DNA of 64,000 nt from Candidatus Poribacteria bacterium (GTDB taxonomy: Bacteria; Poribacteria; WGA-4E; PCPOR2b). The stretch lies in contig OY762266.1 of NCBI GenBank assembly GCA_963665285.1, forward strand, positions 3,616,001 through 3,680,000, given 5' to 3'. Positions 16,812 through 17,954 of the stretch are shown here, one piece after another (position 1 is the first letter of the stretch; each line of letters starts with the position of its first letter). The notes beneath the pieces were generated by a model. That model ran no database searches. It was not told the DNA's origin and saw only the letters and a program-made list of their open reading frames with translations. A program made the position numbers and the translations under genes.

Positions 16812-17954
16812 ATGCGCTTTGTTTTATCAACCATCGGGACCAGCAGCCTGACCAACCAGATTTGTAACGATGATCCCAGCGAATGGCGGCATCTGCTGCG
16901 CGATTCGGCAAACCATAAAATGGCAGACCTGCAGCCGGAGGCGAAAGCGGTGATTGATACACTCGCGGATCGCGCATTTGAGCAACTCTTGGAAGATGAC
17001 GTTCAGATAAACCGTCGAATCAGTGCCGAGTTGAACGGGATCTACGGCATCTACAACGGCAGACTGCCGCAAAACAGTCCCGATCAGCACTATCTCATCT
17101 GTACCGATACCGCACAGGGGCAAAAGACAGGGGAACTGATTAAGGACTTCCTTGTGGATCAGGGACTTAACGCATATATTGTCACACCTGAAGGGCTTTC
17201 CACAAAGGATACCGCTGCTTTCGCCGCAGGGATAAAGGAACTCATTCGGTGGCTGGAAGAGAACGTGCCGTGGCGGCGTGAAAGTGGCTATCGTGTGATT
17301 TTCAACCTCGTCGGTGGCTTCAAAAGCCTGCAAGGCTACATGAATACTTTCGGCGCGTTTTATGCCGATGAGGTAATCTATATCTTTGAGGCAGAAACCG
17401 CAGACCTGATCACGATTCCGCGCCTACCGATTCAGATTGATACTACCCTGATTCAGAAGTATCGGACGGAATTTGCGCTGATGGCTGCTGGGAAGTTGTA
17501 TCCGCGTCGGGTGCTCAGAGACATACCGGAAACGCTGCTTGAATTTCTGGAGGAAGGGGATGACGAAACAGATACAGGGTTATCGGCGTGGGGAACCTTG
17601 GTCTGGAATCGGACGAAAGCGGAGGTATTAGCAGCGGAGCTATTACCGTTCCCACGATTGGAATACGCGGGGACTTTCCAGCGTGATTTTAACGATGAGC
17701 ATGACCCCAAGGCACGGCTCAAGCTGCAAGAAACTTTAGCAATGGTCGCCTATACCCTCGAAAGGGATGGAGGGCATACCAGCGGTCTCACAGGGGGTTC
17801 ACTGAACTATGAAAGACTGCTAGGGGCAGCGGGAAAAGCTGGCATCCACACGTTTCGTATTACCCAAGCGATCCGTGTCAGTTGCACGGTTGCTGAAGGT
17901 GGATTGACCCTTCGACACTATGGAGGGCATGACTACGTGTACAAAAATCCTTAG
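16812..17954 (+). CDS. CRISPR-associated APE2256-family CARF protein with C-terminal RelE-like domain (Cami1-like)
   Basis: STIGTS, SAELNG, TDT, NLVGGFK, IYIFE CARF motifs; C-terminal RelE-like pattern NYERL...HTFRITQAIRV...YGGHD. Confidence 0.8.
   Translation: MRFVLSTIGTSSLTNQICNDDPSEWRHLLRDSANHKMADLQPEAKAVIDTLADRAFEQLLEDDVQINRRISAELNGIYGIYNGRLPQNSPDQHYLICTDTAQGQKTGELIKDFLVDQGLNAYIVTPEGLSTKDTAAFAAGIKELIRWLEENVPWRRESGYRVIFNLVGGFKSLQGYMNTFGAFYADEVIYIFEAETADLITIPRLPIQIDTTLIQKYRTEFALMAAGKLYPRRVLRDIPETLLEFLEEGDDETDTGLSAWGTLVWNRTKAEVLAAELLPFPRLEYAGTFQRDFNDEHDPKARLKLQETLAMVAYTLERDGGHTSGLTGGSLNYERLLGAAGKAGIHTFRITQAIRVSCTVAEGGLTLRHYGGHDYVYKNP

Follow-up and report, generated by a model that had tools for sequence, protein, structure and literature searches.

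We have analyzed a 64,000-nucleotide stretch of the chromosome of a Candidatus Poribacteria bacterium (contig OY762266.1, positions 3,616,001 to 3,680,000; hereafter, the window), in which a gene of the cami1 family lies next to a clustered regularly interspaced short palindromic repeat (CRISPR) array and a type I-B cas operon. Members of this family join a CARF sensor domain to a RelE-like domain, and the gene in the window is accompanied by no type III genes. Here, we describe the locus, compare it with those of related genomes, and consider how such a gene came to stand alone.

Locus organization

The following features were identified (positions are those of the window; residues are those of the cami1 product):

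15040 to 16473, plus strand: gene of 477 amino acids (aa) with no Pfam family, the conserved flank on the cami1 side
16800 to 16804, plus strand: GGAGG motif resembling a ribosome-binding site, 5' of the cami1 ATG, from the sequence
16812 to 17954, plus strand: cami1-family gene, 380 aa, from profiles and predicted fold
Residues about 1 to 205: CARF7 domain
Residues about 206 to 275: middle region resembling a helix-turn-helix
Residues 281 to 378: RelE/YafQ-fold domain
18031 to 18078, no strand assigned: two-way hairpin resembling an intrinsic terminator, between cami1 and the array trailer
18076 to 20828, minus strand: CRISPR array, 42 repeats of 30 nucleotides (nt) and 41 spacers
21083 to 23499, minus strand: cas2, cas1 (type I-B Cas1b) and cas4
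23583 to 28823, minus strand: cas3, cas5b, cas7/Cst2 and cas8b1/Cst1 (type I-B interference module)
28893 to 29654, minus strand: cas6
29655 to 30202, no strand assigned: empty slot of 549 bp from cas6 to the peptidase gene, partly short dispersed repeats
30203 to 32812, minus strand: M28 peptidase gene, the conserved flank on the cas6 side

The array, which is the sole one found in the chromosome, is read on the minus strand towards cami1, and the two are convergent. The neighbouring operon is a complete type I-B system (cas6, cas8b1, cas7, cas5, cas3, cas4, cas1 and cas2, plus the array). This layout agrees with a sequence-only reading of the window, which had placed the gene at the array trailer, convergent with the array and beside a complete type I-B operon. 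The same reading proposed that gene and array share a terminator. A strong hairpin flanked by A/T tracts on both sides does lie between them and could serve both, but it is also present in two relatives without a whole cami1 (G008 and G018), which suggests that it is the array's terminator first. Close to the array trailer, one spacer occurs twice (18370-18405 and 18503-18538). The intergenic regions at 16480-16800, 17960-18030 and 29700-30080 are filled by short palindromic repeats that are dispersed through the genome in up to about 130 copies.

Domain architecture and predicted fold

The window protein was assigned to the CARF7 CARF-RelE proteins by PADLOC (E 1e-127), and its N-terminal CARF7/APE2256 domain was recognised by both PF09651 and TIGR02619. 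Its C-terminal domain belongs to the RelE superfamily, with a YafQ/RelE match. In a Foldseek search with the predicted model, ranks 1 to 4 were taken by the solved Cami1 structures (8phj/8phb), and residues 2-380 aligned to residues 2-350 of the Cami1 chain, that is, over the full length. The Cami1-like CARF-RelE call of the sequence-only reading is borne out by the profile and fold matches, as is the C-terminal RelE fold on which it had made that call depend. Orthologues begin at the same methionine as the window gene. The serine and lysine of the ring-nuclease motifs are kept almost throughout (S11 in 121 and K171 in all 124 of 124 aligned homologues). R349, R355 and H373, found in 95, 122 and 100 of the same 124, are all present here and, by range offsets, may correspond to the catalytic residues of Cami1.

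By its profile matches and modelled fold, the window protein is predicted to belong to the known Cami1 family as a new member of a distant clade, about 20% identical to Cami1, which is described as a CARF7 CARF-RelE protein (PDB 8PHB and 8PHJ; PMC11229360; bioRxiv 10.64898/2026.10.26.761840). Unlike Cami1, the window gene has no chromosomal Cas10 and lies at an array trailer on the strand opposite to the cas genes; it is known here from sequence and a model. A stand-alone ring nuclease of the Crn1 type was considered and rejected, since the RelE domain is present and the ring-nuclease profile NF040951 scored 41 bits against a cut-off of 600; the Crn1 enzymes Sso1393 and Sis0811 (PDB 3QYF and 7PQ2) lack the C-terminal RelE domain. 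In contrast to the ribosome-dependent mRNA interferases YafQ, YoeB and RelE, the RelE domain of the window protein is fused to a CARF sensor, and no antitoxin gene adjoins it. In many cyanobacterial homologues (L092, L098, L100, L102, L106 and others), glutamate or proline stands in place of the C-terminal histidine (H373 here), and their RelE chemistry may therefore differ.

Search for a cyclase in the chromosome

The genome (G000) is a single contig of 6.26 Mb, 99.2% complete, from a metagenome-type assembly, and the negative results for Cas10 and other cyclases given here apply to its assembled chromosome only. The Cas10 and RAMP profiles TIGR02577, PF22335 and PF03787 had no matches while controls were positive, and profiles built from the Cas10, Csm2 to Csm5 and NE0113-type CARF proteins of relatives found nothing at E values up to 1 in 119,985 six-frame segments. 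Two III-D profiles reached no better than E 0.7-0.8, and the GGDD palm motif is absent from open reading frames (ORFs) of 200 aa or more. The absence of type III is real for the chromosome. It extends what the sequence-only reading had noted for the 64 kb, where no Cas10, Csm or Cmr gene occurs, and it leaves one of that reading's proposals, that a distant type III module activates the protein in trans, without support as far as the chromosome is concerned, since the single contig holds no Cas10, RAMP protein or remnant of either.

Nor did other synthases appear. Profiles for cGAS/DncV-like nucleotidyltransferases (CD-NTases) and mCpol (PF18182, PF18144, NF041117, NF041078 and PF21654) and for the SAVED sensor (PF18145) had no matches, and BLAST with the CD-NTases of congeners found nothing. 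One synthase-profile search gave no positive control signal; the same family does match a congener's cyclase. Two loci are recorded as side observations. An unclassified 315-aa Pol-beta nucleotidyltransferase without a CD-NTase family match lies between two PhyH-family genes (L159:3290-4234), and two ORFs (L160:3659-4585 and L161:3273-4088) each hold MntA antitoxin and HepT toxin domains in a single reading frame.

The type III cassette in related genomes

Synteny in relatives, a check that the sequence-only reading had suggested, accounts for the missing genes. In eight congeners (G001, G003, G004, G006, G009, G010, G012 and G014), a III-A block of cas10, csm2, csm3, csm4 and csm5 occupies the same spot between the peptidase gene and cas6 at which the window has only 549 bp. 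The block is about 7 kb in size (in G001, cas6 and the peptidase gene are some 7.4 kb apart), its Csm1 to Csm5 proteins exceed NCBIfam cut-offs with HD and GGDD motifs present, and an NE0113-type CARF gene precedes it in seven of the eight. In G001, G003, G004, G006 and G012 the block runs on into the same cas8b1 type I-B module, and the array repeat is identical to that of the window or differs by two bases. The window locus resembles these composite III-A and I-B loci in its flanks, cas6, I-B module, adaptation genes and trailer cami1, and differs from them in lacking the NE0113-type CARF, cas10 and csm2-5 block. The peptidase gene adjoins cas6 in G000 and in G007, G002, G008, G015 and G018. 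In G005, an inverted III-D cassette lies at this spot, flanked by one partial and one full cas6, together with a 94-aa csm5 remnant (L039:6646-18331).

Several congeners carry III-B or III-D systems at a second variable slot. Six of them have a second type III locus there, while in G000 it is empty without a scar (G000:C1:5626030-5626066, L162; a DUF488 gene is nearby). Type III cassettes are mobile at two slots within the genus. Other variation was seen at these loci. The region of the inverted III-D cassette also contains a weak Card1-like CARF gene, and two III-A-positive relatives carry signs of decay, namely a csm5 split by a stop in G014 (L046:16738-17841) and an NE0113-type CARF gene replaced by a transposase in G010 (L042:17245-18282). 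The type I interference module is swapped, within its slot, for another Cas8/Cas7/Cas5/Cas3 set at L024, L030, L036, L040, L046 and L048 (G007, G014 and G018), the 593-aa large subunit of which has no Pfam or NCBIfam match.

Distribution of cami1 and type III

Within the genus, 11 of 20 genomes, G000 among them, have a full-length cami1 orthologue (75-88% identity), as do three genomes of another family (G044, G052 and G058), where the gene is directly 3' of csm5. Nine of the ten relatives' copies within the genus lie at the array trailer, as here; that of G009 has the same flank beside a single repeat, and a C-terminal fragment remains at the III-A array of that genome. Type III is likewise present in 11 of 20 genomes, with Cas10 and RAMP searches in agreement. 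Intact cami1 was found in 9 of 11 type III-positive congeners versus 2 of 9 type III-less ones (Fisher p 0.02, a value that overstates the association because of kinship), and the two positive genomes without it are represented by fragmented assemblies (G013, 88% complete, and G016, 91%). Among genomes with the locus read, which leaves out G011, G013, G016, G017 and G019, the counts are 9/9 versus 2/6 (p 0.011, overstated by kinship in the same way). In the type III-less G015 and G018, cami1 is reduced to fragments of 65 nt and 72 nt, respectively, and G002 and G008 have no trace of it at the locus. Flank-gene trees place G004 beside G002 and G009 beside G008, and each pair differs in III-A and cami1 together, the first member having both and the second neither. 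G002 and G008, two of the four type III-less congeners with lost or broken cami1, carry the same I-B module in its closest versions, so that coupling of cami1 to type I-B, a further suggestion of the sequence-only reading, is unsupported; coupling to another cyclase likewise found no positive evidence, with no mCpol or CD-NTase detected. CBASS-type cyclases are present in two type III-less congeners with lost or broken cami1 (L058 in G015 and L059 in G002).

Of 487 homologue loci found in species genomes, the best 80 were examined with rough type III profiles and the GGDD motif, and type III genes lay within 10 kb at 66 of these 80, including 65 of the 70 outside the genus. The other 14 comprise nine from this genus and five that end early at contig ends; three of the five are from genomes with a Cas10 palm elsewhere and two from genomes, possibly incomplete, without one. 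Literature searches turned up no report of Cami1 without Cas10, although such orphans may already be in print.

Proposed origin of the orphan gene

We propose, with a probability of roughly 0.78, that this cami1, an intact antiphage toxin gene of an ordinary kind, was orphaned by the loss of a swappable type III cassette and that its product is silent until one returns. The fuller locus of the genus runs peptidase, NE0113-type CARF, cas10, csm2-5, cas6, type I-B module, cas4-1-2 and array, with cami1 on the opposite strand, and the type III block is read as a swappable cassette that was lost or exchanged several times, G000 representing the version without it. The cami1 gene, 12 kb off and beyond the array, would have been spared when the block went. 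Cami1 itself was reportedly characterised by Mogila et al. in 2023, and its mechanism (binding of cyclic tetra-adenylate, cA4, with dimer formation, ring-nuclease activity and A-site mRNA cleavage) is borrowed for the window protein by analogy, on the strength of the fold and motifs. With no Cas10 to make cA4, the window protein should be silent and may be cheap to keep; its fate would be decay, as seen in other relatives without type III, or reactivation if a type III cassette recombines back. The csm5 remnant in G005, the fragments in G015 and G018, and the near pairs G004/G002 and G009/G008 favour this account, and synteny and co-loss in relatives support the relic of a lost module that the sequence-only reading had listed among its options. 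We infer the inactivity of the protein and the direction and timing of the type III loss.

Several observations weigh against this account. The ORF is intact with every conserved motif retained. The ratio of nonsynonymous to synonymous substitutions (dN/dS), estimated from pairwise distances, is 0.13 on the terminal branch of the window gene (bootstrap 0.08-0.21; dS 0.23), a value within the range of type III-positive branches (0.11-0.24), which leaves room for little neutral evolution along that branch. G007 (branch dN/dS 0.23, 0.13-0.47) is a second complete genome with cami1 but no Cas10, and its cami1 is not sister to that of G000. The two share the type III-less junction at about 80% identity over 345 nt, which points to an old junction. 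Its flanks in G000 show no tract acquired recently from any of the relatives sampled, and on the peptidase side the nearest relatives of G000 are only 91-96% identical. Given an old junction and a low dN/dS, a relic requires one of two recent events, either recombination with a lineage that was not sampled or the loss of another type III locus; the second slot is empty in G000, with no scar. The orphan state therefore reflects one or other of these events, or else the gene still has a use. A history of recombination is plausible, since the cami1 tree conflicts with the flank trees, the best match of the window gene shifts along its length, and the intergenic region upstream is 94% identical to that of the III-A-positive G014. 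As to a second locus, six congeners have type III genes at the second slot, and signalling between loci has been proposed (PMC11229360).

Alternative explanations

Selection on cami1 could be maintained by a Cas10 outside the assembled chromosome, on an unbinned plasmid or element or in a cassette cycling through the population. We regard this as unlikely. A metagenome-type single contig would miss other replicons, the type III cassettes of the genus move at two slots, and a returning or extrachromosomal source would fit the low dN/dS, but the chromosome holds neither Cas10 and RAMP genes nor remnants, and the array repeat has no exact match in viral contigs. Runs X5 and X6 contain a second haplotype, divergent by a few percent, that departs from the reference at 30204 and whose 30-nt end resembles the III-A-positive junction in a weak, by-eye comparison; it belongs to a different strain or species and need not come from the same cell. 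The possibility that a type III block was lost in assembly at the slot, which contains short dispersed repeats, is the least probable of all. The slot is bridged without differences by contigs in three of four runs (of 21 listed) from two studies (X2, which may be the source sample, over 27400-32900; X5 and X6 over 29304-30263), and G007 has the same junction. A stand-alone ring nuclease or cA4 sink with a secondary RelE domain is only marginally less improbable, given that G000 lacks a source of cA4 as well as any further CARF effector, among the families tested, against which protection would be needed, that the RelE domain is intact (terminal-branch dN 0.02, dS 0.19), and that NF040951 falls far under its cut-off.

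A role independent of Cas10, in which the cyclic nucleotide of an unrecognised synthase or another infection signal triggers a translation block that backs up type I-B, has a small chance of being correct. Both G000 and G007 are complete and keep cami1 intact without Cas10, selection is not relaxed, the junction is old, and G000 has the one unclassified Pol-beta nucleotidyltransferase. Against this, mCpol, SMODS, cGAS/DncV and CBASS-b have no match in G000, nor do mCpol, cGAS, CBASS-b and DncV in G007; the CD-NTase-bearing congeners G002 and G015 lost cami1; and the conserved positions of the window protein are those of type III-linked orthologues. The Cas8/Cas7 module of G007 differs from that of G000, so no particular Cascade is tied to the orphan state. 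Some room for Cas10-independent activation is left by the low dN/dS, the age of the junction and the existence of a second orphan genome, and it is conceivable, if quite doubtful, that Cami1 is selected in lineages long without Cas10 through an unrecognised synthase, phage-made cyclic oligoadenylate or a type I-B interference signal. Of the explanations considered, only this unlikely one, if true, would alter what is known of cyclic-nucleotide immunity, as it would amount to a defence, tied to a type I array, that blocks translation independently of Cas10. As a relic, the locus is a tidy natural example of composite CRISPR loci swapping or losing type III cassettes and leaving effectors behind, and it cautions against reading new signalling into a CARF gene that adjoins a type I operon. 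Because the genus contains matched genomes that have or lack the cyclase, the fate of orphan effectors can be measured in it.

Other features of the window

Clusters of TTATCCACA-like repeats at 58803-58897 and 60472-60527 flank an ORF of 451 aa (58934-60289). By their motif, these clusters resemble the DnaA boxes of a replication origin.
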